A DNA stretch of 64,000 nt from Acidobacteriota bacterium (GCA_963666215.2 CAXWPL010000005.1:480001-544000), one strand, 5' to 3'. Numbered from the stretch's first letter, positions 28,330 through 40,633 are shown. Translations and numbers: made by a program. The notes: generated by a model from the letters alone, not told the origin.

Positions 28330-29493
28330 ATGATGAGCAAGACCTTCGAGCGCATCGAGACCAAGCTGATACACGCCGGCGAGCCGGAGCCCCGTATCGA
28401 GGGCGCGGTAACGATGCCGGTGTTCCAGTCGGCCACCTTCCTCTCTGGAACCGGCGCCGACAACTACCACGATGTCCGTTACGTCCGCCTCAACAACACC
28501 CCCAACCACGACGCGCTGCACGCCAAGATGGCGGCGCTCGAGAACGCCGAGGCAGCGCTCGTCACAAGCAGCGGCATGGCGGCAATCAGCACCACGCTGC
28601 GCACATTCCTGTCCAGCGGCGACCACCTGCTGGTCCAGAACTGCCTGTACGGCGGCACCCACGAGCTCTTCACGCTCGACTATCCCGAGCTCGGCATCGA
28701 GCACGACGTGTTCGACCCACGCGCCCCCGACACCTGGGCGGCGTTGCTGCGACCCACGACGAAGGTCATCTACGCCGAGACCATCACCAACCCTCTCATG
28801 GAGGTCGGGGAGCTCGACGCCATCGCCGCATTCGCACGCCAGCACGGGCTCATCTCGATGATCGACAACACCTTCGCCAGCCCCATCAACTTCAGGCCCG
28901 CCGAGCACGGCTTCGACCTGTCGCTGCACAGCGCCACCAAGTACCTCAACGGCCACAGCGACATCGCCGCCGGCGTGGCCATAGGCCCCGCCGACCTCAT
29001 CGAACGCGTGCGCCTCAAGCTCAATCTCTTCGGCGGCACCCTCGATCCGCACGCCTGTTTCCTGCTCAACCGCGGTGTCAAAACACTGGCGCTCCGAGTC
29101 CGCGCGCAGTGCGACAACGCCCAACGCATCGCGGAGTTTCTCGACGCCCACCCGCGCGTCGCCCACGTCAACTATCCCGGGTTGGCCAGCGACCCCGATC
29201 ACGAGCGCGCCACGACGCTGCTCGACGGCTTCGGCGGCATGCTCTCATTCGAGGTCGACGGCGACGCGTCTGAAGCCCAAGCCGTCATGGGAGCCGCGCA
29301 GATCGCCATCGATGCCCCGAGCCTCGGCGGCCCTGAGACGTTGGTTACACGCCCCTCCGCCACTTCGCACGCCTGCCTCACCCCGCAAGAGCGCGAGACT
29401 GCCGGGATCTCCGACGGACTCATCCGCATGTCGGTCGGCATCGAGGCGGCCGAAGACCTCATCGCCGACCTCGCCCAGGCGCTAGAGCGCTAG
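28330..29493 (+). CDS. Cys/Met metabolism PLP enzyme (cystathionine/methionine gamma-lyase family)
   Basis: SSGMAAI, ETITNP, DNTFASP, HSATKYLNGHSD, SLGGPE, R.SVGIE. Confidence 0.92.
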   Translation: MMSKTFERIETKLIHAGEPEPRIEGAVTMPVFQSATFLSGTGADNYHDVRYVRLNNTPNHDALHAKMAALENAEAALVTSSGMAAISTTLRTFLSSGDHLLVQNCLYGGTHELFTLDYPELGIEHDVFDPRAPDTWAALLRPTTKVIYAETITNPLMEVGELDAIAAFARQHGLISMIDNTFASPINFRPAEHGFDLSLHSATKYLNGHSDIAAGVAIGPADLIERVRLKLNLFGGTLDPHACFLLNRGVKTLALRVRAQCDNAQRIAEFLDAHPRVAHVNYPGLASDPDHERATTLLDGFGGMLSFEVDGDASEAQAVMGAAQIAIDAPSLGGPETLVTRPSATSHACLTPQERETAGISDGLIRMSVGIEAAEDLIADLAQALER

Positions 29494-29626
29494 AGATCGG
29501 CTGGCAGACGCGTCGAGCGGCCTTGGCCGTAGGGGGCGGCCTGTCGCCAGAAGAGCCGCCGCCCTGGTTGCCGGTTGCGATCAGCGCTCCTGGGCAAGCG
29601 ACGGCGACGGCGGTGACAATCGCCCG

Positions 29627-30154
29627 CTACACCGATAGACGCTGGCGAAGGACCTCGCACAGAGCCACAGCCACCGAATTGGCCAGGTTGAGCGAGCGGA
29701 CTCGCTGACCGACGATTGGAATCCTCACCATCCGATCGGCGTAGCGATCACGCGTTTCGTTGGAAAATCCTGCCGATTCGCGTCCGAACAGAAGCACGGT
29801 CCGCCGCGGGTACTCGACGTCCCACAGCAAGCGCTTGCCTTCGGCGCTGAAGAACCACGGCTCACCGAGCTCGGGCAGCCGCGACTCGATGTGCTCCCAG
29901 GAGCCCCACACCTGGGGCTGAACATGACGCCAGTAGTCAAGACCAGCACGCCGGACATGGGCGTCGTCGAGCGAGAATCCGAGTGGCTCCACGAGGTGCA
30001 GCTGCGCCCCGGTGGCCAGGCAGGAGCGTCCGATGTTGCCGGTGTTGCCGTGGATCTCCGGCTCCACGAGCACAACGTGCAGGGCGTCGTTTGCTCCACC
30101 CGTGTCCGTTTCCAGAGCCGTGTCTGTTGATCCTTCTGAAGTCGGGCCGCTCAT
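29627..30154 (-). CDS. trmL: tRNA (cytidine/uridine(34)-2'-O)-methyltransferase
   Basis: PEIHGNTGNIGR.C, RRAGLDYW, FGRESAG, RSLNLANSV. Confidence 0.92.
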   Translation of the reverse strand: MSGPTSEGSTDTALETDTGGANDALHVVLVEPEIHGNTGNIGRSCLATGAQLHLVEPLGFSLDDAHVRRAGLDYWRHVQPQVWGSWEHIESRLPELGEPWFFSAEGKRLLWDVEYPRRTVLLFGRESAGFSNETRDRYADRMVRIPIVGQRVRSLNLANSVAVALCEVLRQRLSV

Positions 30155-30322
30155 CGCCCGGCGAGTGTATTCGACGGGCGCGACGCGGGGAGAATCGGCC
30201 GGCATCGATGTTGACGCGAGCTCGAGAATAAGGGCCTCGGCGAAACGTTCTCGCCGAGGCCCTGATTACCGCGATCACGACGGTCTATCCCCCGTCTCCG
30301 GAGGGCAGCCGTCGGGATCGAC

Positions 30323-31630
30323 CTACAGTGTTTTGGCGATCTCGGGACGAGCCTTGGTGCGTCCGCCGCTCGAGACCTGTTCTTCTTCGCCCTGTTCGCC
30401 CTCTTCCCCGTCTTCGTTGTCGGCGTCGTCGTGATCATGATCGTGGTCCGACCAGATACCGAACGGCAGATCACCGAACTCGAATTCGAAGCCGTGCAGG
30501 TCGAGGTCATCGAGCTTGAAGTCCCAGACGGCGCCTTCTGCACCGTCGCCGGTCCAGTCGCGGCGGAACTCGAAGAGCTCGTTGGCGTGGTCGCCGAACC
30601 CAATGCTGCCCTCGTCGCCATCGAAGAAGAAGACGCTCGGACCTTCGTGCTCCTCGCCCTCTTCGTGTTGATGGGGGTCGCCCTCGCGCAGCGTTCGAGT
30701 CAGGACACCGAACGGATGCCGCCGCATCTCGTCCGCCTTGTCGCGCTGTTCGGGGGTCAGGATCGCGCGGATCTGCTGACGCAGCCGCAGACCGGCAACG
30801 CGATCTTCAACGCGCATCCGCGAGATCTGCTCCATCTGGGTTTGAACGGCCCCGAGGTCGGCTTCGTATTCGTTTTCGAGCAAGGAGTCGAGGTCGAGCT
30901 CCGCCACCTCGATCGCCGCCTGGCGTTCGATCTCAGCTCGGCGATGATCACGCTCGGCGGAGCGGATACCGTCCTGCTGGTCGTCGGTCAGCTCCAGCTC
31001 CTCAGCGCGGGCCAGGATCGCATCGGCGGAGTTGGACCCTCTCCGCAGGAGCATGCCCGGAGCAGAGATCCGCACGCGCGGTGCGGATCGCACCGAGAAT
31101 CGTCGATCCTGCAGTCCGGACCGCAGACCTTCGAGCGCGTGCCGCCTGGCGATCACAGCGCTTTCCATCGCCTGCTGCGCGCTGTGCAGCGCCTCTCGGT
31201 GTGCAACGCCCCCAGCGCGCTGCCCCTCCACTGCTCGCTCGAGTAGCTCTCGTGTGCGCGCCAAACGCTCATTCGCGACGCCGGTTCGCTCATGAAGACT
31301 GGCCTCGAGGCCGGCGAGCATCCGGTCGAGCTGCTCTTGATGAAGCTGCTTGGCCCCACGTTGCCGCATCACCAGGCGCTCGGCGAGCTCAATCCTGCGG
31401 CGGGCCTCGTCGAGCTGCTTCTTTTCGGGATCGAGCTGCTGTTCCTCTTGAATAGCGCTCGACGTCGGCGAGCCCTCCTGATGAGCGATAGCCGCGTCGA
31501 CCAACGCCACCGAGCCCAGCAGCAGTGTAGCCACGGCCAGACTGGCGGCCATGGTTGTCAGCCGCGAACGCCCTGAGCGTTGCGCCAGCCAGCTCGGCAA
31601 TCGCCGAACCTGATCGGGTGGAGAACCCAT
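30323..31630 (-). CDS. Exported coiled-coil protein with Spy/CpxP-like domain and acidic His-rich tail
   Basis: LELTDDQQ and ILTPEQR (LTxxQ) motifs; DHDHDHDD tail. Confidence 0.65.
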   Translation of the reverse strand: MGSPPDQVRRLPSWLAQRSGRSRLTTMAASLAVATLLLGSVALVDAAIAHQEGSPTSSAIQEEQQLDPEKKQLDEARRRIELAERLVMRQRGAKQLHQEQLDRMLAGLEASLHERTGVANERLARTRELLERAVEGQRAGGVAHREALHSAQQAMESAVIARRHALEGLRSGLQDRRFSVRSAPRVRISAPGMLLRRGSNSADAILARAEELELTDDQQDGIRSAERDHRRAEIERQAAIEVAELDLDSLLENEYEADLGAVQTQMEQISRMRVEDRVAGLRLRQQIRAILTPEQRDKADEMRRHPFGVLTRTLREGDPHQHEEGEEHEGPSVFFFDGDEGSIGFGDHANELFEFRRDWTGDGAEGAVWDFKLDDLDLHGFEFEFGDLPFGIWSDHDHDHDDADNEDGEEGEQGEEEQVSSGGRTKARPEIAKTL

Positions 31631-31736
31631 GTCGAACCTCCGAGTCGAAGGGAGGGAGCGTCGGGGCTTTCGAGAACTGTTGAATAGGAGCGTCGCCGGC
31701 CACAAAAAGTCGGCAAAGAACGAGGCCGACTCGAAA

Positions 31737-31752
31737 TTTAGGCTAGACTAAA
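31737..31752. promoter_or_regulatory. Candidate DtxR/SirR/MntR-family operator overlapping a -10 element
   Basis: TTTAGGCTAGACTAAA is a near-palindrome resembling TTAGGTTAACCTAA, contains TAGACT, and lies 10 nt before ATG 31763. Confidence 0.65.
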
Positions 31753-31762
31753 AATATCTTCT

Positions 31763-33736
31763 ATGAAACGCTCCGCCGCTCTACTTCTGTGCCTACTGCT
31801 GCTCGGTGGGCTATTCGCCGCTCCCGACCGCGGTGACAGCCACATTGTGCGCGAAGCCCCCTGGCACCCCGTGCCGGCCGCTTATCTGCGCAGCCTGTTC
31901 TACATCGGTTTGCAGCCAATCGACTGGCGGCTCGTGGCCTCGGAGTACGAAGCGCCGCTCGAGCCAGCCTACGGCTTCGCTACCGTGTACGACATGCTCG
32001 ACGCTTCGGGTCATCCGCGGCCGGAAGTCGATGCCGTGGGCGGTGGCGAGAGCGACACCACCGCCGGCCGGATGAGCCCAATCAGTCACGGATCGAGCTC
32101 GACAATGATCCGCGCGGCGATCGACGCCGAGGACGCCGCCGGCCTCTACTACGCCTCCACAACAGCCATATCTCGCCTGACTCGCCACTATCTGCACGAA
32201 GCCGAGTCCGCGCTGGCGCTCCCGGGGGCTGCTCAGGAGCCCCTCGAGCGTGCACGGCGCATCTATCGGGCTCTCGAGCAGGACTTTCTGCGCAACTACG
32301 ATCCAGGCGGCAACGCACGACTGGGCCTGAGCTGGCTGACGCTCTCGTCGACGGTCGGCACGGCCGGGGTGGCGGGGACCTCCGCGCGTGGCGCCAATAC
32401 CGAAGCTTTCGTAGGGGCTCGTGAAGAGATCTCGCGCTATCTCATCGATAACTACGAGATCTCCGCGGGCCGCGCCGCGCCGCGCCAAACCTTCCTGCCG
32501 CTGCCCGAAAGTGCTGTCGCAGCTGAGGCTGACCTCCGCCCCTTGAATTGGCTGCCGCCGGGCGCCGACCTCAACGATCAGGATCCGTTGCCTCGACTGG
32601 TACTCAACTTCGAGGAGCGCGGCATTGATGAGAAAGACCTCTTTCTGGTGGCCTACGGCGACATGCTGTTCGACTCGCCCCAGGTGTTTGGCGACCCGGC
32701 ACGCGGTCTCGGCCTGACCTGCTCACGGTGCCACAACCGCAGCGACATCAACCGGCGGCTGTTCATCCCGGGTGTGAGCGCCCGACCGGGCGGCCTCGAC
32801 ATAGACGGGCACTTCTTCAACCCGCGCTTCAACGATCGCCGCAACGACCCGCTCGACATACCGAGCCTGCGCGGCATCCGCTTTACCGGCCCCTACGGAC
32901 GCGACGGACGCGACGGTAGCCTGCGCGACTTCACCCGCAACGTGGTGGTGAACGAGTTCGCCGGCGACGAGCCCACGCCGTTGATGCTCGACGCCCTGGT
33001 GGCTTACATGCAGGAATTCGACTGGCTGCCGGCGCCCTACCTCGAGCCCGACGGAAGGCTCAAGCCCTCGGCTCCAGCCGGCGCCGGGCGCGGCGAAGTG
33101 CTCTTCAACAAGGAATTCGATGGCATGGGCGGGCGCTCCTGCAGCACCTGCCATATCGCCAGCGCCAACTTCGTAGACACCCTTCGCCACGACATCGGCA
33201 GCGGCGATCCGTCGAGCCCGAACGCCCGCGACAGTGCCTTCGAAACCCCGACGCTGCTCGGCGTCGCCCACACCGGCCCGTATTTCCACGACGGCTCGCA
33301 GGAAACGCTTGCCGACGTGGTGAGCTGGTTCAACGAGCACCATTCGCTTGGTCTCAGCGCTCCAGAGCGAAGCGACCTCACGGCCTACATCGAGGCGATC
33401 GGCACCGGCGAAGATCCGTACGAGATCTTCGACGAAGAGAACACTCAGTTCGGGATGTTCTTCGGCGAGCTCACCACCTTCGCCAGCACCCTCAGCACCC
33501 TGCTGCCAGCGCGCGACACGTTCCACGCCGATCTGCTCATCCGCACCGTCGCCGAAGACATGCGGCTCGACGCCAGCGCATTGATTGACAGATCGCAGGC
33601 GCCCCTGGTTTACGAGCTGGCGGACAAGCTCGAGGAAATCGGCACCGCGATCAACGCCGACGATTGGGCCACGGCCGAGTCGCGCTGGATCGAGTACCAA
33701 CAGCTCGAGGCCGAGTACGGGCCTGACTTCAGGTGA
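31763..33736 (+). CDS. Atypical di-heme cytochrome c peroxidase/MauG-superfamily protein with long N- and C-terminal extensions
   Basis: Signal peptide; CSRCH and CSTCH; IPSLRG...GPYGRDG and TPTL.GVAHTGPYFHDG. Confidence 0.82.
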   Translation: MKRSAALLLCLLLLGGLFAAPDRGDSHIVREAPWHPVPAAYLRSLFYIGLQPIDWRLVASEYEAPLEPAYGFATVYDMLDASGHPRPEVDAVGGGESDTTAGRMSPISHGSSSTMIRAAIDAEDAAGLYYASTTAISRLTRHYLHEAESALALPGAAQEPLERARRIYRALEQDFLRNYDPGGNARLGLSWLTLSSTVGTAGVAGTSARGANTEAFVGAREEISRYLIDNYEISAGRAAPRQTFLPLPESAVAAEADLRPLNWLPPGADLNDQDPLPRLVLNFEERGIDEKDLFLVAYGDMLFDSPQVFGDPARGLGLTCSRCHNRSDINRRLFIPGVSARPGGLDIDGHFFNPRFNDRRNDPLDIPSLRGIRFTGPYGRDGRDGSLRDFTRNVVVNEFAGDEPTPLMLDALVAYMQEFDWLPAPYLEPDGRLKPSAPAGAGRGEVLFNKEFDGMGGRSCSTCHIASANFVDTLRHDIGSGDPSSPNARDSAFETPTLLGVAHTGPYFHDGSQETLADVVSWFNEHHSLGLSAPERSDLTAYIEAIGTGEDPYEIFDEENTQFGMFFGELTTFASTLSTLLPARDTFHADLLIRTVAEDMRLDASALIDRSQAPLVYELADKLEEIGTAINADDWATAESRWIEYQQLEAEYGPDFR

Positions 33737-33740
33737 TCGC

Positions 33741-34769
33741 ATGAGCCAAGAAACTCAATTGCAGGCGCGCCGACCCACCGCTACATCTCGTCCGAGTCAC
33801 CGTTGGCGTTGCGACGGAGGTGTGAACGACACGAGTCGGCCGAATCGGCAAGCTCCGCGGCGCTCTCGGCTCGGCCTTTTGGTGGCCGCGCTCGTGCTCA
33901 GCTCTTCGGCAATGCCTTCTCGGCCGGCCCTCGCGGCGCTGTGGGGCCCGGCAACGGGTCAGACAGGCGGCGGCCCGGGTGCCCCGCTTGTCCTGGCGTT
34001 TATCCCGCAGGAGAACCCCGAGAAGCTGCTTGGCGACATCGATGCGTTCACCAGCTACCTCGCCGCTGAGCTCGGCCAGCCCGTGCGCGGCTTCGTGACG
34101 CTCGATCACGCCGCCGCCGTCGAGGCGTTGCGCCACGGTGATGCCGACATCTCGTTCATGGGCGCCCTGCCCTACGTGATTGCCCACGAGCTCATTGGCG
34201 CGCGCGTGCTGCTCTCGGAGATCTATCGTGGCCGACCTGTCTACCGCGGTCGCATTTTTGTGCGTCGCGACGGTGGCATCCGCACACTGGCCGACCTACG
34301 CGGCAAAACAATCGCTTTCCCCGACCCGATCTCCGAGTCAGGCTACTTGTACCCGCTCGACCTGTTCGCACGCGCCAACCTGCTCGAGCGCGGCGCCGAT
34401 CCTCAGAGCTTCTTCGGCACGGTCTACTTCGCAGGCGGCTACCAGCAGGCCATCGCCGCGGTGGCCAACGGCTACGTGGACGCGGCGGGCGCGAGTCAGT
34501 TCGCCGACCTGTTGCTAACGCCCGAGCAGCTGCGAGATGTGACGTGGATCGCCGAAACCGACGAGATTCCTTCACACGCCGTCATCGCGCGCGGCGACTT
34601 GCCGGAACCCCGCGCCGCGGCGTTCGTTGCCGCCATGCTGAAGCTCAACGAGCCCGAGTATCAGCACCTGCTGCAGTACGTCTACGGCCCCGACGGCTAT
34701 GTGACGACGACTCACGAAGCCTACGCCGGTGTGGCCGATGTCGCGCGGCTCTACGGACTGCTCGAATAA
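33741..34769 (+). CDS. PhnD/PtxB-fold ABC substrate-binding protein
   Basis: FIPQENP, A.VEALR.G.AD..FMG..PY, L.DLRGK.IAF.DP.S.SGYLYP, VDAAG. Confidence 0.85.
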   Translation: MSQETQLQARRPTATSRPSHRWRCDGGVNDTSRPNRQAPRRSRLGLLVAALVLSSSAMPSRPALAALWGPATGQTGGGPGAPLVLAFIPQENPEKLLGDIDAFTSYLAAELGQPVRGFVTLDHAAAVEALRHGDADISFMGALPYVIAHELIGARVLLSEIYRGRPVYRGRIFVRRDGGIRTLADLRGKTIAFPDPISESGYLYPLDLFARANLLERGADPQSFFGTVYFAGGYQQAIAAVANGYVDAAGASQFADLLLTPEQLRDVTWIAETDEIPSHAVIARGDLPEPRAAAFVAAMLKLNEPEYQHLLQYVYGPDGYVTTTHEAYAGVADVARLYGLLE

Positions 34770-34776
34770 CAGCCAC

Positions 34777-35592
34777 GTGCCCGCAGCCGCCGAATCCACC
34801 GAGGTGTCGCCGCACGCCCTACAGCTGACGGGTGTCCGCGCGCGCTACGGCGACGGACCCTGGGTGGTCGACGTCGAGCAGCTGACCGTCAATCGCGGCG
34901 AGCGCGTGGCCATCATCGGGCCCAGCGGTTCAGGCAAGACGAGCCTGTTACGGCTCATCAACGGTTATGTTCCGGCGGTAGAAGGGCAACTGCAGATTCT
35001 TGGAAGGACCCCTCGGGATCAGGGTCGCCGCCGCTCTGCGCGCACCGCCGTGGCGTTCATCTTTCAGGAATTCCACCTCGTCGACCGGGCCAGCGTCTTC
35101 GACAACGTGCTGTGGGGTCGCCTCGGGCACGTCCACCCGCTCTCGAGCCTGCTCGGCCGCTTCCCGCTGGCCGACAAGCGGGCCGCCATGGAGGCGATCG
35201 CGGAGGTGGATCTCACTCCTCAGGCAACCCAGCGGGCCGACACACTGAGCGGCGGCCAGAAGCAAAGGGTGGGTGTGGCGCGAGCGCTCGCGCAGGAGCC
35301 ACAGATCCTGCTGGCCGACGAGCCCGTCAGCAATCTCGACCCTGCGCTCGCGGACGACATCCTCGAGCTCCTGGTGCGATCAGCAGAACGACGCAACGCG
35401 ACGCTGCTGCTGACGCTGCATCAACCCGAGCTGGCGCGACGCCATGCCGATCGCATCGTTGGCATGCGCGAAGGCCATGTTGTCCACGACGGCCGCAGCG
35501 GCGACCTGACGGACGCCGACCTGAAGCGCATCTATGGTCGCGAGGGCATTCCGCAGCTCGAACCTCGTGAAAGCTCTGCTCGACGGGCATGA
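34777..35592 (+). CDS. PhnC-like ABC ATPase
   Basis: GPSGSGKT, NVLWGRLG, LSGGQKQRV, LADEPVSNLDP, LHQ. Confidence 0.9.
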   Translation: MPAAAESTEVSPHALQLTGVRARYGDGPWVVDVEQLTVNRGERVAIIGPSGSGKTSLLRLINGYVPAVEGQLQILGRTPRDQGRRRSARTAVAFIFQEFHLVDRASVFDNVLWGRLGHVHPLSSLLGRFPLADKRAAMEAIAEVDLTPQATQRADTLSGGQKQRVGVARALAQEPQILLADEPVSNLDPALADDILELLVRSAERRNATLLLTLHQPELARRHADRIVGMREGHVVHDGRSGDLTDADLKRIYGREGIPQLEPRESSARRA

Positions 35593-36392
35593 TGAGCCCG
35601 TCGAGCGACATCGACGCGCGTATTCCGCGCCCCTCGCCGATGCAGAGCTTCGGCCGCGTGGCCGCCATCCTGGGCGTGGTGGCGGCGATTGCCTGGGGAT
35701 GGCACGGCACGAGCTTCGACCCGGCGCGCTTCGTGGCAGGGCTGCCACGGCTGCGCGAGTTCGTGGGACGCATGCTGCCACCCGACGCCGACGTGGCGTC
35801 GACCGTTCTGCGATCAACGGTTGAAACGCTGCAAATAGCTCTGTTCGGCACACTCTTGAGCGCCATCGCGTCGGTGGTCCTGGGCGTGGCGGCAGCACGA
35901 ACGCTGGCGCCGGCGTGGCTGGCAATCCCACTGAAGTGGATGCTCAGCGCGCTGCGCGCGATCCCGATGCTGCTGCTGGCGCTGTTGTTCGTGTCGACGG
36001 TCGGCCTCGGCCCCTTCCCGGGAGTGCTCGCGGTTGCGGTGCATTCCACCGGGATGCTCGGCAAGTTCTACGCCGAGGCTTTCGACGGCGCCCGATCGGG
36101 TCCGTTGGAGGCGCTCGACTCGGCAGGAGCCTCGTGGCTGCAGCGGGTCCGATTCGGCGTGCTGCCGCAGGTGGCGCCCGTACTGGCACGCGACACACTT
36201 TTCCGTTTCGAGCTCAACCTCCGCGAATCACTCGCCCTGGGCCTCGTCGGCGCCGGTGGTATCGGCCTCTACATCCAGATGTACACCCGAGCGTTCCAGT
36301 ACGACAAAGTTGCTACTCTGACGATCGTCGTGCTCCTCATGGTGGTGCTCGTCGAACAGGCCAGCGTCGCGGTCCGGCAGCGTCTCCGCTAG
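35589..36392 (+). CDS. PhnE-like ABC permease
   Basis: ETLQIA..GT, GLGPFPGVLA..HS.G.LGKFYAE, RFE.NLRES..LG.VGAGGIG. Confidence 0.9.
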   Translation: MMSPSSDIDARIPRPSPMQSFGRVAAILGVVAAIAWGWHGTSFDPARFVAGLPRLREFVGRMLPPDADVASTVLRSTVETLQIALFGTLLSAIASVVLGVAAARTLAPAWLAIPLKWMLSALRAIPMLLLALLFVSTVGLGPFPGVLAVAVHSTGMLGKFYAEAFDGARSGPLEALDSAGASWLQRVRFGVLPQVAPVLARDTLFRFELNLRESLALGLVGAGGIGLYIQMYTRAFQYDKVATLTIVVLLMVVLVEQASVAVRQRLR

Positions 36393-36419
36393 CTCGCCCC
36401 AAGCTCGGCTCGGAGTGAG

Positions 36420-39160
36420 ATGAAGCTAGCCTCAGGCACAGCCAAGCCGGCACCCAGATCGCTCCTACGGGTCGGGCTGCTCGGCCTCGGGCTGATCTCC
36501 CTTGCGGCGGTTCTTTGGGCCTGGAGCTTCACCCACTCCGGCCTACCGCGACGCCGAGGCGCGGCCGCCATCCCCGGCTTGTCGGCGCCGGTCCGCGTTC
36601 GATTCGACGACTGGGGCGTGCCGCACCTCGACGGCGCGAGCTTCGCCGATTTGGCGCGTGGCATGGGCTACGTCCACGCCAACGATCGATTCTTGCAGCT
36701 CGAGCTCGGCCGGCGACAGGCCGCCGGCCGGCTCGCCGAGGTTCTCGGGGAGCGGGCCGTGGGCGCCGATCGTTACTACCGCGGCCTCGGGCTGACCCGG
36801 ATCGCTCGAGCGCAGGTAGAGGCTGCCGGAGCCGAAACTTCCCGTCTTCTCGACGCCTATGCCGATGGCGTCAACGCCTGGCTCGCTGAGCGGCGCGGCG
36901 ATCTGCCGCCCGACGTGCGGTTGCTGTTGCGCGGCCGAGAGCACTCGCAACCGGACCCCTGGAAGCCGATCGACAGCGTCTATTTCCAGCTGCTCATGGC
37001 ACACGACCTGGGTTTCTGGCAGGGCCGACCCGAGGAAACGCGCTTCGAGTTGCTTGCCAGTCTGGGCAGAGAGCGCTTCGCCGACCTCATGGGAGACAAT
37101 CCGCACGTGCCGCGCGAAATCGCCGACCTCGCAGCCGAGCTCTCCAGCCAGCTCGCAACCCGGGAGGCCGACCGCCTGGCCGGGTTCCGGCCGGACCCCG
37201 TGGCCGCCGCGTTCGCCGCGCGGCGCACCTCGTCAGCCGTCGCCAGCGAACAACGCGTCGCGATCGGCAGCAACAACTGGGCGGTCGACGGCAACCACGC
37301 GGCAAGCGGATTGCCGCTGCTGGCGAGCGACCCCCATCTCGCATTGCGACTGCCGTCGATTTGGTATCAGGCCCTGCTACGGGCGCCCGACTACGAGGCC
37401 GCCGGGATGACGCTGATTGGTTTCCCGTTCGTTGTCATCGGCCGTGGGCCGGATCTCGCCTGGGGCTTCACCAATACCATGCTCGACGATCACGACCTGT
37501 TCTTCGAAGAGGTCGAAAACGGTCGCGTTCGTCGCGGCGACCGCTGGGTCGAGCTCGAGCAGGTCGAGGAGCGGATCCTCGTGCGCGGCGCCGACCCGAT
37601 TGCGATCACCGTCAGCTACGGCGATCGAGGCGTGGTTCTGCCACCCGATGAAGAGAGAGGCTTGCCGGCACGCAGCCTCAGCTGGACGGCCGCGGTACCG
37701 AGCGATCCTTCCACAGCGTTGCTGAATCTGGCTCGCGCACGATCGATCGACGACGTCCGCGAGATCGGTGAGATGGGGGGCGGCCTCGAGGGCTACGCCG
37801 CCCCGGCGCAGAATCTGGTCGCCGCCGATCGGGCGGGCGGCATTCTGCAGACGGTCATCGGACGCGTTCCGCTGCGGCGCCGCGGGGACGGGCGACTGCC
37901 GTCGCCGGGGTGGGACGAGCGCTACGGCTGGTCCGGACTGCGTCCGCAACACGCCAATCCTACGATCGAGCGGCCTGGACGCGGTTTCTTGACCAGCGCC
38001 AACAACGACGTTCGCGGAAGTCCTGGCAACGATACCGGCACGGCAACCACCGCAGATGAAGGTGTTTCTGTCCCGCGCAACGCATCTGGCGGTCCGACGG
38101 TTTCCGACGACGACGACGTCGAGCTCGACGCGGCCTTAGACGTCGCTCTCGTCGGCAACTTCGACACCGACCATCGGGTGCGACGCATCGAAGAGCTCCT
38201 GGCGGCCCGCGGCGATTGGACCCCGACAGGTTTCGCCGAGCTGCAGAGCGACACCCGCTCGCTCTACGCCAGCGAGGTGATCGCCGCGACGCGCGCGCAC
38301 TTCAAGGTGCCTAACGGTGGTGGGGACGCCCAACGGAATTACGCGCCCGAAGATCCGAGAGCGACGCGAGCTCTCGATCTGCTGGCGGCCTGGGACGGCG
38401 ACATGCGCACCGAGGCCGGCCCGGCGGCAGCTCTTTTCGTCCCGTTCGATCAGGAGCTTCACCGAGCGGTCTTCGCCGACGAGGTGCACGAGGCCGCGCG
38501 CAGGTCTGGCTTCAACCGCCGCCGACAGCTCACTCGATTGCTTCGGGGAGACATGACGGACAGCTGGTACGACGACGTCTCGACGACCCAGACAGAGGGC
38601 GCGCGCGACATTTTCGAGCGCGCGCTGGCCGTTGCATGGCAGCGAGCCAGCGAGGCTTGGGGTGAGGACTCGGAACGCTGGAACTACGAGACGATCCACA
38701 CGCTCACGTTGACGCATCCGCTCGGATCGCTGCCCGTCGTCGGCAGCTGGTTGAACCGCGGCCCCATGCCCATCCCCGGATCGGCTACCAGCGTCGCCGC
38801 CTTCGGTGGCGGCTTGAGCGACCGACGGGTAGTCGTGACCGCTGGGCCCTCGATGCGTTGGATCGCCGACCTTTCCGAAGCCGACTCCGGACTCGTCTCC
38901 CTACCCGGCGGTCAATCCGGCCATCCGCTCGACCCGCACTACACCGATCAGCTGCAGCCGTATCTGCAGAACCAGGGACGGCCGCTGCGCTTCACCGAGG
39001 CTGCGATCGCCGCCAACACCGTCAGCACCATGGCGCTGCTACCGACCGTGAGTCGCTCGCTTGGGGCTGGAGGCGGCGAGAGCGGAGACGAGATCGACCT
39101 GCTCCTGGTCAGCGAGCGCGTGGTCGATGGCAGCGGTGCCGCGGCCGGGCCCGCGGCGAT
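36420..39160 (+). CDS. Penicillin acylase family (Ntn hydrolase) domain; N-terminal part of an apparent fusion
   Basis: DDWGVPH, GYVHANDR, GSNNW nucleophile, SDPHL, SANN, PGGQSG.P..PHY.DQ. No stop follows; the frame runs into DLLL...VVDGSG. Confidence 0.88.
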
Positions 39161-40633
39161 CGGATCGTCTACGTCGGGCCGGTGGAGCGCGCGCCGCGGG
39201 CCACCGAAACGCTCGACGTCGGAAGCTCGATCATCGCGCCCGGATTCATCGACACGCACACGCATGCGCTCTCGGCAGCAAACGATCCGCGCCGCTCACT
39301 GGCGGAAAACTACCTGTGCCAGGGTGTCACGACACTCGTGGCAGGCAACGACGGCGGCGGCCCGTTCACAGTGCAGGCCACGTTCGAGGCCATGGAGCGG
39401 AATGGGCTCGGACCGAACGTCGGCCTTCTCGTTGGCCACGACCCGATACGGCGCGCGGTGGTCGGCGCCGACGACCGGCACGCCACCGACGTCGAAATCG
39501 CACGCATGCGTGAGCTGGTCGAAGACGCGATGCGAGAAGGTGCTCTGGGGTTCTCGACTGGGCTCTTCTATCCCACGGGCTTCTACGCCGAGACCAGCGG
39601 GGTCATCGAGCTGGCTCGGGGCGCGGCTGCACATGGCGGCATCTACGACAGCCACATGCGTGACGAAGGCTCGTTCTCCATCGGAGTGCTGGAAGCGGTT
39701 CGCGAGACTGTGCGAATTGGAGAGGAGGCCGGCCTACCGGTGCACATCGCGCACATCAAGGCCCTGGGCCCCGACAACTGGGGGCTTTCCGAAGAGATCG
39801 TCGCGATCATCGCCGCGGCGCGAGCCCGCGGGCTCCGAGTGACGGCCGATCAGTACCCCTACGCGGCCTCCAGCACGACGATCGCCGGTGCCGTGCTGCC
39901 GCGCTGGGCCCTGGCCGGCGGCGACGAGGCGTTCGCGGAACGCTACGGCTCGGGAAATTCGAATGATCCCGAGACGGCCGCAAGCCGCATGCTGACCGAG
40001 ATCGAGGCCAATATCGCGCTACGCGCCGGGCCGCAGGCATTGCAGTTTTCCAGCGGTCCGGAGTTGCTCGGCCGCGGTGGCAACTCGATTGCCATCGCCG
40101 GTCGGACTCTCGCCGATGTGGCCGCGGCACTCGGCGTCTCACCTGCCGAAGCGTCGGTACGCGTGCAGCTCGGCGGCGGCGCCAGCGTTGTGTCGTTCGA
40201 TATGTCGGACGCCGACGTGAAACGCTTTCGAGGCCTGCGCTGGGTCATGACCTCGTCGGACGGCTCACTCGTTCTTCCCGGTGAGGGTGTTCCCCACCCG
40301 CGCTCCTACGGCAGCTTCGCGCGGGTGATCTCACATTTCGTCCGCGACACCGAGCAGCTGACACTGCCCGAGGCGATTCGCAGCGCCACCAGCCTACCAG
40401 CGGCGACGTTCGGGCTCGGCGATCGCGGGCTGCTGCGTGCAGGAGCCACCGCCGACGTCATCGTGTTCGATGCCCAGGCGATCGACGACCGCGCGACCTT
40501 CGCGGCGCCTCACGCTCATGCGGCAGGCGTCGCGCAGGTCATCGTTAACGGCCGCTTCGTTATTCGCGACGGAGAACTCACCGGCGCGCGCCCAGGTCGA
40601 GGCCTGCGGCGTGGGGAACACAATCCGCGTTGA
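39090..40633 (+). CDS. N-acyl-D-amino acid deacylase (amidohydrolase) domain, frameshifted at about 39160
   Basis: APGFIDTHTH, GNDG, STGLFY, SHMRDE, HIAHIK, DQYPY, SSDG, HPRSYG.F.R, DRGLL..G..AD. Confidence 0.88.

Follow-up and report, generated by a model that had tools for sequence, protein, structure and literature searches.

What does an ATP-binding cassette (ABC) importer carry when its binding protein belongs to a phosphonate-binding family, but the residues that hold the oxyanion in that family have largely been replaced? The question arises at a locus in a 64,000-nt stretch of DNA from an Acidobacteriota bacterium (GCA_963666215.2 CAXWPL010000005.1:480001-544000), referred to here as the window. 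Positions 31738-36392 of the window are read as a four-gene operon encoding a two-haem protein of the cytochrome c peroxidase (CCP)/MauG type, a PhnD-fold substrate-binding protein (the binder), an ABC ATPase and an ABC permease. We propose that this cassette is a manganese-repressed, redox-assisted metal importer with manganese (Mn) as its cargo, and not a phosphonate or phosphite importer, a proposal that we regard as having an even chance of being correct. The homologous sample used throughout comprised 80 loci, kept from 182 relatives recovered in a scan with one genome per species. The components of the cassette are listed below.

31738..31751, no strand assigned: MntR-type palindrome TTAGGCTAGACTAA (TTAG-N6-CTAA with A/T-rich flanks), 11 nt before the ATG of the first gene
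31763..33736, + strand: two-haem CCP/MauG-like protein, periplasmic, 657 aa, with a signal peptide, two CxxCH motifs and a match to PF03150
33741..34769, + strand: PhnD/PtxB-fold substrate-binding protein with a remodelled cleft; leader included, mature domain at about residues 80-342
34729..35592, + strand: PhnC-like ABC ATPase, scoring 242.2 against TIGR02315, just below the cut-off of 266.1; PF00005 matched
35589..36392, + strand: PhnE-like ABC permease, scoring 263.2 against TIGR01097 and so above the cut-off of 216.7

The open reading frame (ORF) of the binder runs on the + strand from an ATG at 33741 to a TGA at 34769 and encodes 342 aa, and its ATG lies 5 nt beyond the stop of the upstream 657-aa gene (31763-33736). 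The start codon of the PhnC-like gene is uncertain; the GTG listed overlaps the binder gene by 41 nt.

An earlier note on this DNA had assigned the binder to the PhnD fold, and this assignment was borne out. The binder matched Pfam PF12974 (Phosphonate-bd) over residues 86-328 (E 1.1e-55; 189.1 bits against a cut-off of 27), and its predicted structure showed the two-lobe class II periplasmic binding fold. It also scored above the TIGR01098 subfamily cut-off (150.3 vs 112.05), but below the cut-offs of the PhnD equivalog TIGR03431 (145.5 vs 261.1) and of the putative selenate binder TIGR04553 (86 vs 250). No match to PF01297, the cluster A-I family of PsaA, MntC and ZnuA, was found at E up to 0.01. 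A phmmer search of all PDB sequences with the binder returned 18 distinct matches, headed by P. stutzeri PtxB (7.2e-20) and followed by Prochlorococcus PtxB, AioX, HtxB, ArrX and E. coli PhnD. The binder model had a predicted local distance difference test score (pLDDT) of 87.4 and, from residue 81 on, reached at least 93 in all 10-residue blocks except one. The earlier note had suggested superposing a structure prediction on PtxB and PhnD; by VIA-align the overall predicted fold agreed with both (Z 29.4 for PtxB, 28.0 for E. coli PhnD), as it did with ArrX (Z 30.4, root-mean-square deviation [rmsd] 1.9, 251 aligned), AioX (Z 28.6) and all other PF12974 structures (Z down to 25). The nearest solved folds outside PF12974 were the lobes of transferrin, ovotransferrin and lactoferrin, on which the model superposed with Z 23-24.4 and rmsd 2.6-3.3 over about 250 aligned residues. 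The leader of the binder (33741-33980) is unusually long, with about 75 residues ahead of the mature domain and an Arg-rich RRSRLGLL before its hydrophobic core; the signals of homologues are short, of the Sec or lipoprotein kind.

The cleft of the binder was mapped onto that of PtxB by HMMER alignment. The alignment with P. stutzeri PtxB (Ps_PtxB) was gap-free over residues 83-185 of the query, and 5lv1 served as Prochlorococcus PtxB. Residue numbers are those of the 342-aa binder of the window, whereas PtxB ligand roles and numbering follow the ligand-site portions of PMC5700983, with which the chain numbers of Ps_PtxB in the alignment agreed (D16, Y94, S124-T125-S126 and H155). The positions at issue are as follows.

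34008..34010, + strand: Gln90, at the position of the latch Asp that holds the cap (Ps_PtxB D16); 80 of 80 loci
34107..34109, + strand: His123, at the position of a ligand Tyr (Te_PtxB Y55, equivalent to Ps_PtxB Y49); TLDHAA aligned to TTDYSS, gap-free
34242..34244, + strand: Tyr168, the retained hinge Tyr (Ps_PtxB Y94); 80 of 80 loci
34332..34340, + strand: Ser198-Glu199-Ser200 at a helix N-terminus, replacing S-T-S (Ps_PtxB S124-T125-S126); each in 80 of 80 loci
34440..34448, + strand: Tyr234-Gln235-Gln236, with Tyr234 where Ps_PtxB has the ligand H155; all three invariant in the 80 loci
34575..34577, + strand: His279, aligned with the capping Tyr of PtxB (IPQY in 5lv1); 80 of 80 loci

By this alignment with the PtxB site as laid out in those portions, four of the seven oxyanion-site positions differ and now read His, Glu, Tyr and His; the latch has changed as well. 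The capping Tyr and latch Asp that form a pair in PtxB, with its P-H...pi contact, are occupied instead by His279 and Gln90. The motifs quoted in the earlier note were all present (GALPY at 141-145, PVYRG at 166-170, SESG at 198-201, GGYQQ at 232-236 and IPSH at 276-279), and most of the roles that it had given them by eye held. Its replacement of STSG by SESG corresponds to Ser198-Glu199-Ser200 on the Ps_PtxB serine-threonine-serine; the Tyr of GGYQQ falls on the ligand H155, as expected for the loss of the usual His; the Tyr of PVYRG, taken to be retained, falls on Y94; and the His of the IPSH cap loop falls on the capping Tyr of 5lv1. The note had, however, also counted the Tyr of GALPY as a retained ligand. 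That residue, Y145, aligns to the non-ligand Tyr71, is Tyr in 57 of the 80 loci and Phe in 22, and the true ligand Tyr aligns to H123. Thus, only one ligand Tyr is retained, and the exchanges go beyond the set that the note had described.

These residues were strongly conserved. Position 123 was His in 77 of the 80 loci and Gln in the other three, with Tyr in most outgroup sequences, and E91, E160 and Y162 were likewise invariant in all 80. Among 78 aligned family members, Glu at the middle of the S-x-S motif was confined to the close clade. Distant PF12974 members mostly kept Tyr at column 123 and His at column 234, with S-T-S or S-A-S between them, and an intermediate group had Tyr234 and His279 present, with Glu199 and His123 absent. 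Because the substitutions are conserved across the 80 loci (77 to 80 of 80), the pattern of cleft substitution, as read from the alignment, is not chance.

The association of the binder with its partner genes was equally constant. Synteny was counted by searching the 80 loci with the four window proteins (tblastn). The two-haem gene lay immediately 5' of the binder gene in 78 of them, and in the remaining two (L024 and L062) the contig begins with the binder gene. PhnC was found in 79 and PhnE in 77, every missing case being at a contig end; in one locus (L005) the ABC genes stand in front rather than at the back. No fused form of at least 600 aa was found, which is weak evidence. The 80 loci span at least nine phyla or groups: Acidobacteriota, Methylomirabilales, Dadabacteria, Chloroflexota, Thermodesulfobacteriota, Deinococcota (Trueperaceae), Spirochaetota, Verrucomicrobiota and Alphaproteobacteria. 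Cultured carriers among the Alphaproteobacteria include Ruegeria, Leisingera, Loktanella, Labrenzia, Bosea, Hoeflea, Oricola, Halovulum and Pontibaca. A search of 5.8 billion proteins with the binder scored 8000 candidates, at least 1359 of which matched at E up to 1e-10; the best 120 matches were 61-77% identical to the binder, and those that carried names were called phosphonate-transport binding proteins. An exhaustive search of 50% representatives found 6306 relatives at E up to 0.001, of which three full-length representatives were more than 50% identical to the binder before identity fell to 46%.

A sister cassette in the same phylum as the window (L107:6930-11400; G136:C52) encodes a two-haem protein and a binder that are 44% and 47% identical to those of the window, respectively. 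The cleft of this sister binder reads Y90, Q91, Y123, S-S-S, D234, E235 and H279, and a further group in the representative search combined D-M-S with D234, E235 and H279. No TTAG-N6-CTAA was present in 12 kb of the sister locus, and no regulator within 7 kb upstream. A phylum-wide search for the sister clade mostly recovered the main clade; at least five of six orthologous loci (L095-L100) were apparent duplicates and were not counted. With its Asp/Glu/His/Tyr cleft, the sister cassette (L102/L107) suggests that PhnD-fold metal importers with a haem partner form a wider family.

The partner protein carries two haem c motifs, located as follows.

32720..32734, + strand: first haem c motif, C320-S-R-C-H324; C320, C323 and H324 invariant in 40 aligned homologues
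33140..33154, + strand: second haem c motif, C460-S-T-C-H464; C460, C463 and H464 invariant in 40 aligned homologues

The protein matched PF03150 at 31.0 bits against a cut-off of 25.6 and was 620-670 aa long across the loci. Its model had a pLDDT of 78.8 and a predicted di-haem fold in a core at about residues 279-596. By VIA-align this modelled core was closest to BccP (Z 14.8), MbnH (14.5), YhjA (14.3) and hydrazine synthase gamma (14.1), followed by MauG (13.8), BthA (12.8) and RoxA (11.4). Residues from about 1 to 278 were predicted to be helical, were without a match and were barely covered by the comparison, and residues 555-657 were modelled as a generic C-terminal four-helix bundle. 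A likeness of this bundle to the photosystem II extrinsic proteins PsbQ and CyanoQ (Z about 12-13) was set aside as lying within the range of generic helical bundles. The protein scored below every equivalog tried: MbnH TIGR04039, its best NCBIfam match, at 43.4 vs 362.85 and so far under the cut-off; MauG at 35 vs 443.85; and a CytoC_perox subfamily at 16.5 vs 150. An Atlas look-up returned only clusters named 'cytochrome c peroxidase family'.

Contact between the two periplasmic proteins was examined by complex prediction with residues 31-657 of the two-haem protein and 80-342 of the binder, with alignments for each and with two haems and Mn included. The predicted complex scored 0.60 (runs 0.60, 0.62 and 0.49), while the best of three controls scored 0.00; the runs shared at least 83% of contacts, and partner pLDDT was at least 85. 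The verdict assigned was 'weak support': 58 of 80 solved complexes and 2 of 110 mismatched pairs attain the mark used, but only seven of those 80, and both of the passing mismatches, do so with a score of 0.60 or under. The predicted contact mildly favours a direct hand-over between the haem protein and the binder, or maturation.

The regulators beside the cassette point to manganese. Clustering of the flanking ORFs of the 80 loci identified a DtxR-family regulator as the only neighbour that recurred across phyla. Adjacent regulators were counted by tblastn with three regulator proteins, whereas ORF clustering gave only 23 of 80, antisense ORFs having been picked in eight loci. By this count, 31 of the 80 loci had a DtxR-family gene directly upstream of the two-haem gene. 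Ten of these genes encode long forms and share the strand of the cassette (Dadabacteria, Thermodesulfobacteriota, Caldilineaceae and Trueperaceae), and 21 encode short forms and are transcribed divergently (Alphaproteobacteria). All three short regulators tested scored above the cut-off of NF008273, 'manganese-binding transcriptional regulator MntR' (195-207 bits vs 153), and all three cassette-adjacent long regulators tested scored higher with a Thermus-type MntR model (162-210, short of its cut-off of 350) than with DtxR (75-112). Members of the DtxR family that sense Mn have Asp and Glu where DtxR has Met10 and Cys102. All 12 aligned regulators had Asp in an EDY motif and Glu and His in AE..EH, which we take to be the positions at which Mn sensors differ from DtxR.

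The candidate operator is of the same type. The palindrome TTAGGCTAGACTAA was the sole copy of TTAG-N6-CTAA in the 64-kb window, where 0.06 were expected. The whole 4.65-Mb genome held five copies, against 13.8 expected from base composition, and the window copy alone of these five had A/T-rich flanks and at most one core mismatch. The extended consensus of the palindrome across the intergenic regions was AAAnTTAGCCnnGGCTAAnTTT. An enterobacterial MntR box, AACATAGCnnnnGCTATGTT, is quoted in a section of Rodionov et al. 2006 (PMC1698941), and TTAG-N6-CTAA shares with the box as quoted there its spacing and most of its half-site bases. A lone MntR site in Mesorhizobium sp. BNC1 is termed 'enigmatic' in connection with that work. 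Within -250 to +30 of the start of the two-haem gene, an exact palindrome was present in 25 of 69 examinable loci; the background was 62 copies in 1,006,105 nt, or 0.017 per 280 nt. Exact copies were also found upstream of the same-strand regulator in six of ten loci, and additionally in L077. In total, 32 of the 80 loci had an exact palindrome, eight of them without an adjacent regulator. Palindromes with one mismatch occurred in L018, L029, L051, L057 and L061, and none in L043 or L044. A strict search of five alphaproteobacterial genomes yielded four sites, three belonging to the cassette itself and one lying between sugar-ABC genes, and did not define a wider regulon; Nramp was present in one of these five genomes and ZnuA-family proteins in all five. 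A scan of 31600-31800 for a sigma-70 promoter and a terminator found neither, and no Rfam family reached its gathering score over 29000-37000, so that no Mn riboswitch was detected there.

Two of the five palindromes of the window's genome stand in tandem, 22 nt apart, on another contig (C2:429635-430848; L082:2636-3849). They lie just upstream of an ORF of 384 aa with a signal peptide, one N-terminal CxxCH and a barrel-like C-terminus ending ...LNAVF. This ORF had no Pfam or NCBIfam match and no homologue in the 80 loci, and the Atlas clusters into which it falls are unnamed, with proteins about 380 aa long; in one of them 20% of the members carry Porin_O_P. It could be a fused cytochrome-porin of the same regulon.

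Collectively, these observations argue for a metal cargo, most likely Mn with Fe second as judged from the cleft and the regulators. The earlier note's central claim, that the oxyanion set had been traded for a metal-like one, gains support from the corrected residue map, from the MntR-type regulators and operator and from the transferrin-like fold, while its GALPY assignment was wrong. Its further suggestion, that Glu, two Tyr and His chelate a cation in the manner of an Fe(III) binder, keeps the cation but not the preferred metal: since the regulators are of the manganese type, Mn is likelier than Fe(III).

Several observations weigh against a Mn importer. The window's own genome has a single DtxR-family gene, which is on a different contig and unlinked to the cassette, and its product stays below the Thermus-type MntR cut-off (178.6 vs 350), with 101.2 for DtxR. 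This regulator is nevertheless 44% identical to a cassette-adjacent Trueperaceae regulator and has the same EDY and EAE..EH motifs. No palindrome was found within about 800 nt upstream of the genome's two Nramp genes, its ZnuA-like gene or the regulator gene, so in this genome the connection of box to regulator is drawn by analogy with what other genomes show. Of the 80 loci, 41 had no adjacent regulator and no exact box, and a box between divergent genes might do no more than let mntR regulate itself. In some Alphaproteobacteria, SCO1/SenC (eight loci) and PCu(A)C (seven loci) lie near the cassette, which hints at copper. The predicted complex of haem protein and binder passed only weakly. 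Of the oxyanion ligands given for PtxB in the ligand-site portions of PMC5700983, the binder keeps Y168, S198 and S200 only; yet these, together with a PhnE above its cut-off and a PhnC near its own, allow for an anionic or zwitterionic cargo.

The Mn importer would work as follows, in the form that we infer. When Mn is plentiful, Mn-loaded MntR would occupy TTAG-N6-CTAA beside the first gene and switch the operon off; under Mn shortage, the cell would make the periplasmic two-haem protein together with the binder. In the binder, His123, Glu199, Tyr234 and His279, together with Tyr168, would hold a metal cation, Mn by preference, in the positions that otherwise serve a P-oxyanion; a small synergistic anion might join it at the Ser-x-Ser end of the helix. 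The two-haem partner may change the redox state of the metal to one that fits the binder, most simply by peroxide-driven oxidation of Mn(II) to Mn(III), or it may mature the binder itself, by analogy with the action of MbnH on MbnP. The loaded binder would then dock on the PhnE/PhnC-type ABC importer and deliver its presumed cargo. A more specific form of this scheme, in which an oxidase works with a transferrin-like binder, the enzyme either making Mn(III) or maturing Tyr and His residues of its partner and the binder, convergently rebuilt around a His/Tyr/Tyr/His plus Glu site, capturing the trivalent ion for ABC import, is considered rather unlikely. Two precedents bear on the possible role of the haem partner: according to a portion of PMC9936198, serum transferrin binds Mn(III) tightly and suboxic waters are rich in ligand complexes of Mn(III), and a portion of PMC11951088 describes how MbnH oxidises Trp to kynurenine in MbnP, creating a Cu site.

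The cassette resembles several known systems, each in part. It shares with PtxB, PhnD and HtxB the PF12974 family and fold, PhnC/PhnE-like ABC partners, the hinge Tyr and the two helix-end Ser. It differs from them in that the binder fails the PhnD equivalog and, relative to the PtxB site as numbered in the ligand-site portions of PMC5700983, has Tyr replaced by His123, Thr by Glu199, His by Tyr234, the cap by His279 and the latch by Gln90. An obligatory two-haem partner or MntR-type control for PtxB, PhnD or HtxB systems was not found described in a literature search. AioX and ArrX are among the best structural matches and show the same fold retuned to other ligands; however, AioX carries S-N-S and retains the His in the HMMER alignment, and both proteins act in two-component sensing rather than in an ABC importer with a haem partner.

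In the N-lobe of transferrin, Fe(III) is held by Asp63, the hinge Tyr95, Tyr188 and His249, with carbonate at a helix N-terminus between the two Tyr, and the metal ligands of FbpA are His, Glu and two Tyr, plus phosphate. The binder appears to resemble both in having a hard His/Tyr/Tyr and carboxylate set beside an anion site at a helix N-terminus. Its residues H123, Y168 at the hinge, the S-E-S helix end, Y234 and H279 presumably follow the order of the transferrin N-lobe ligands along the chain, which serves as a lead only. Unlike the fold, the sequence of the binder shows no detectable kinship with transferrin or FbpA (no Pfam or PDB sequence match).

Coupling of a periplasmic redox enzyme to a transporter is familiar from EfeUOB, the Ftr1/Fet3-type systems and FetMP; in oxidase-coupled iron uptake, a ferroxidase oxidises Fe. 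The cassette shares the genetic tie of enzyme to transporter, by which the form to be transported would be produced locally, but its enzyme is a two-haem c-type protein of the CCP/MauG kind, its transporter is a PhnD-fold ABC importer and its regulator is of the Mn type, not the Fur type. MbnH-MbnP and MauG-preMADH are alike in the modelled haem core (Z 14.5 and 13.8) and in a haem-protein gene paired with a metal-related periplasmic partner. The cassette haem protein differs from MbnH and MauG in about 280 extra N-terminal residues and the C-terminal four-helix bundle; its partner is a PhnD-fold protein and not MbnP or MADH, and its equivalog scores are far under the cut-offs. With MntH/NRAMP, PsaABC/MntABC/SitABCD, ZIP and MnoP the cassette has in common putative control by an MntR-type repressor and box and, with PsaABC, an ABC architecture, but its binder lies outside the ZnuA/PsaA family, with no PF01297 match. 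The portion of a 2022 review (PMC9334652) that enumerates Mn import routes names NRAMP, PsaBCA-type ABC transporters, ZIP, porins of the outer membrane as well as type VI secretion, and no PhnD-fold system. A full-text literature search found no description of the cassette. The system appears to be a variant of two known kinds, the ABC metal importer and redox-coupled metal uptake, in a PF12974 member that is neither PhnD nor PtxB.

The alternatives differ chiefly in cargo. A non-metal solute, either an aminophosphonate whose amine pairs with Glu199 or another small anion, with an indirect link to MntR, would be compatible with membership in PF12974 and TIGR01098, with a PhnE above and a PhnC just under its cut-off and with the retention of Y168, S198 and S200. 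The family spans phosphite, hypophosphite, phosphonates, arsenite, arsenate and glycerol-1-phosphate, and acidic residues of E. coli PhnD take the amine of 2-aminoethylphosphonate. This explanation is nonetheless unlikely. The binder failed the PhnD equivalog (145.5 vs 261.1), and the ligand His, the ligand Tyr, the middle Thr and the capping Tyr of the PtxB site, as assigned in the ligand-site portions of PMC5700983, are all replaced. No C-P lyase, phosphonatase, ptxD or Pho-type gene recurred in the flanks of the 80 loci, the sole recurrent regulator is of the MntR type, and there is no evident reason for a phosphonate importer to need an obligatory two-haem partner. A chelated cargo, for example a small metallophore or Mn(III) complexed by a ligand, which the two-haem protein would process by oxidising the ligand or changing the valence of the metal, shares the MntR linkage with the Mn importer proposed here. 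A carboxylate or phosphate group on the chelator could be gripped by the retained Ser-x-Ser and Tyr168, an outer-membrane beta-barrel gene adjoins the cassette in nine loci, and a portion of PMC9936198 describes ligand-stabilised Mn(III) as abundant in suboxic waters. This possibility too appears improbable, as neither chelator biosynthesis genes nor a TonB-dependent receptor recurred beside the cassette in the 80 loci and the clefts of PtxB-type proteins are small, as described in part of PMC5700983.

Iron is the metal that the cleft itself would suggest. In an Fe(III) uptake system, the two-haem protein would be a periplasmic ferroxidase and the cleft of His, Glu, two Tyr and His would hold Fe(III). 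Its ligand set is the classical one of FbpA and transferrin, no solved fold outside the family comes closer than the transferrin lobes, FbpABC likewise uses a type I ABC permease, and iron sensors exist within the DtxR family. The regulators speak against it: all three short ones tested pass the MntR equivalog, the long ones score higher with the MntR model than with DtxR, and all 12 carry the EDY and AE..EH pattern that is typical of Mn sensors. The spacing of the box is of the MntR type and not that of the DtxR/IdeR box, and no link to Fur, Irr or RirA was seen at the loci, where these were not searched for systematically. Uptake of Fe(III) is therefore held to be of low probability. A copper system, in which a MauG-like protein would build a modified residue in its partner to which Cu then binds, by analogy with MbnH-MbnP, draws on MbnH being among the closest folds (Z 14.5) and the best NCBIfam match, albeit far below the cut-off, on the SCO1/SenC and PCu(A)C genes (eight and seven loci) and on the predicted haem protein-binder complex, weakly supported at 0.60 vs 0.00 for controls. 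It is very unlikely, because the chaperone neighbours occur in Alphaproteobacteria only and at variable distance and strand, no CsoR, CueR or CopR regulator recurred at the cassette loci, where regulators and boxes are of the MntR type, and the cleft has neither Met nor Cys, its Tyr, Glu and His probably favouring hard ions.

If the cassette is indeed a Mn importer, a gene set publicly named 'phosphonate ABC transporter' would be a metal importer, and estimates of phosphonate use from PF12974/PhnD counts in marine and soil metagenomes would be inflated by this clade. It would represent a new class of Mn (or Fe) uptake with an obligatory periplasmic two-haem partner, added to a list of Mn routes that the 2022 review, in the portion cited, deems well understood (PMC9334652). 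Bacterial import of Mn as Mn(III) would become a possibility, and the cassette would then be the first Mn(III) importer; such a route would sidestep the Irving-Williams problem, in which Zn poisons ordinary Mn(II)-binding proteins. The cleft would also exemplify clearly how a single fold can shift from binding an oxyanion to binding a cation, as a parallel to transferrin. The cultured, non-pathogenic carriers Ruegeria, Leisingera, Bosea, Labrenzia and Hoeflea make the idea directly testable.

Other genes near the cassette were also recorded. An outer-membrane beta-barrel gene (PF13557 Phenol_MetA_deg or PF19089 DUF5777) stands beside the regulator or the cassette in L006, L009, L010, L021, L025, L027, L003, L005 and L011 (Dadabacteria, Thermodesulfobacteriota and Acidobacteriota), and it may be an outer-membrane entry route. 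The copper-chaperone genes are found about 0.1-4 kb from the cassette in L030, L031, L064, L066, L069, L072, L076, L079 and L080; in the last of these, SCO1/SenC and PCu(A)C genes directly follow PhnE on the same strand.

In the window itself, a secreted protein of 460 aa is encoded divergently from the cassette (30323-31705, - strand). Its LTXXQ segment (CpxP/Spy/ZraP-like) falls slightly short of the Pfam cut-off (23.1 vs 24.3), its C-terminal tail is rich in His, Asp and Glu (DHDHDHDD...), and it may be a periplasmic metal-stress protein. It was not among the recurrent clusters of flanking ORFs of the 80 loci; no direct search for it was made. Downstream of the cassette, a penicillin-amidase ORF (36420-39842, + strand) has its Pfam domain at residues 57-864, with a frame open to 1140 aa that extends about 980 nt into the next gene, an amidohydrolase (38858-40633, + strand). 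The overlong frame may reflect a lost stop, an assembly frameshift or merely an open GC-rich frame.

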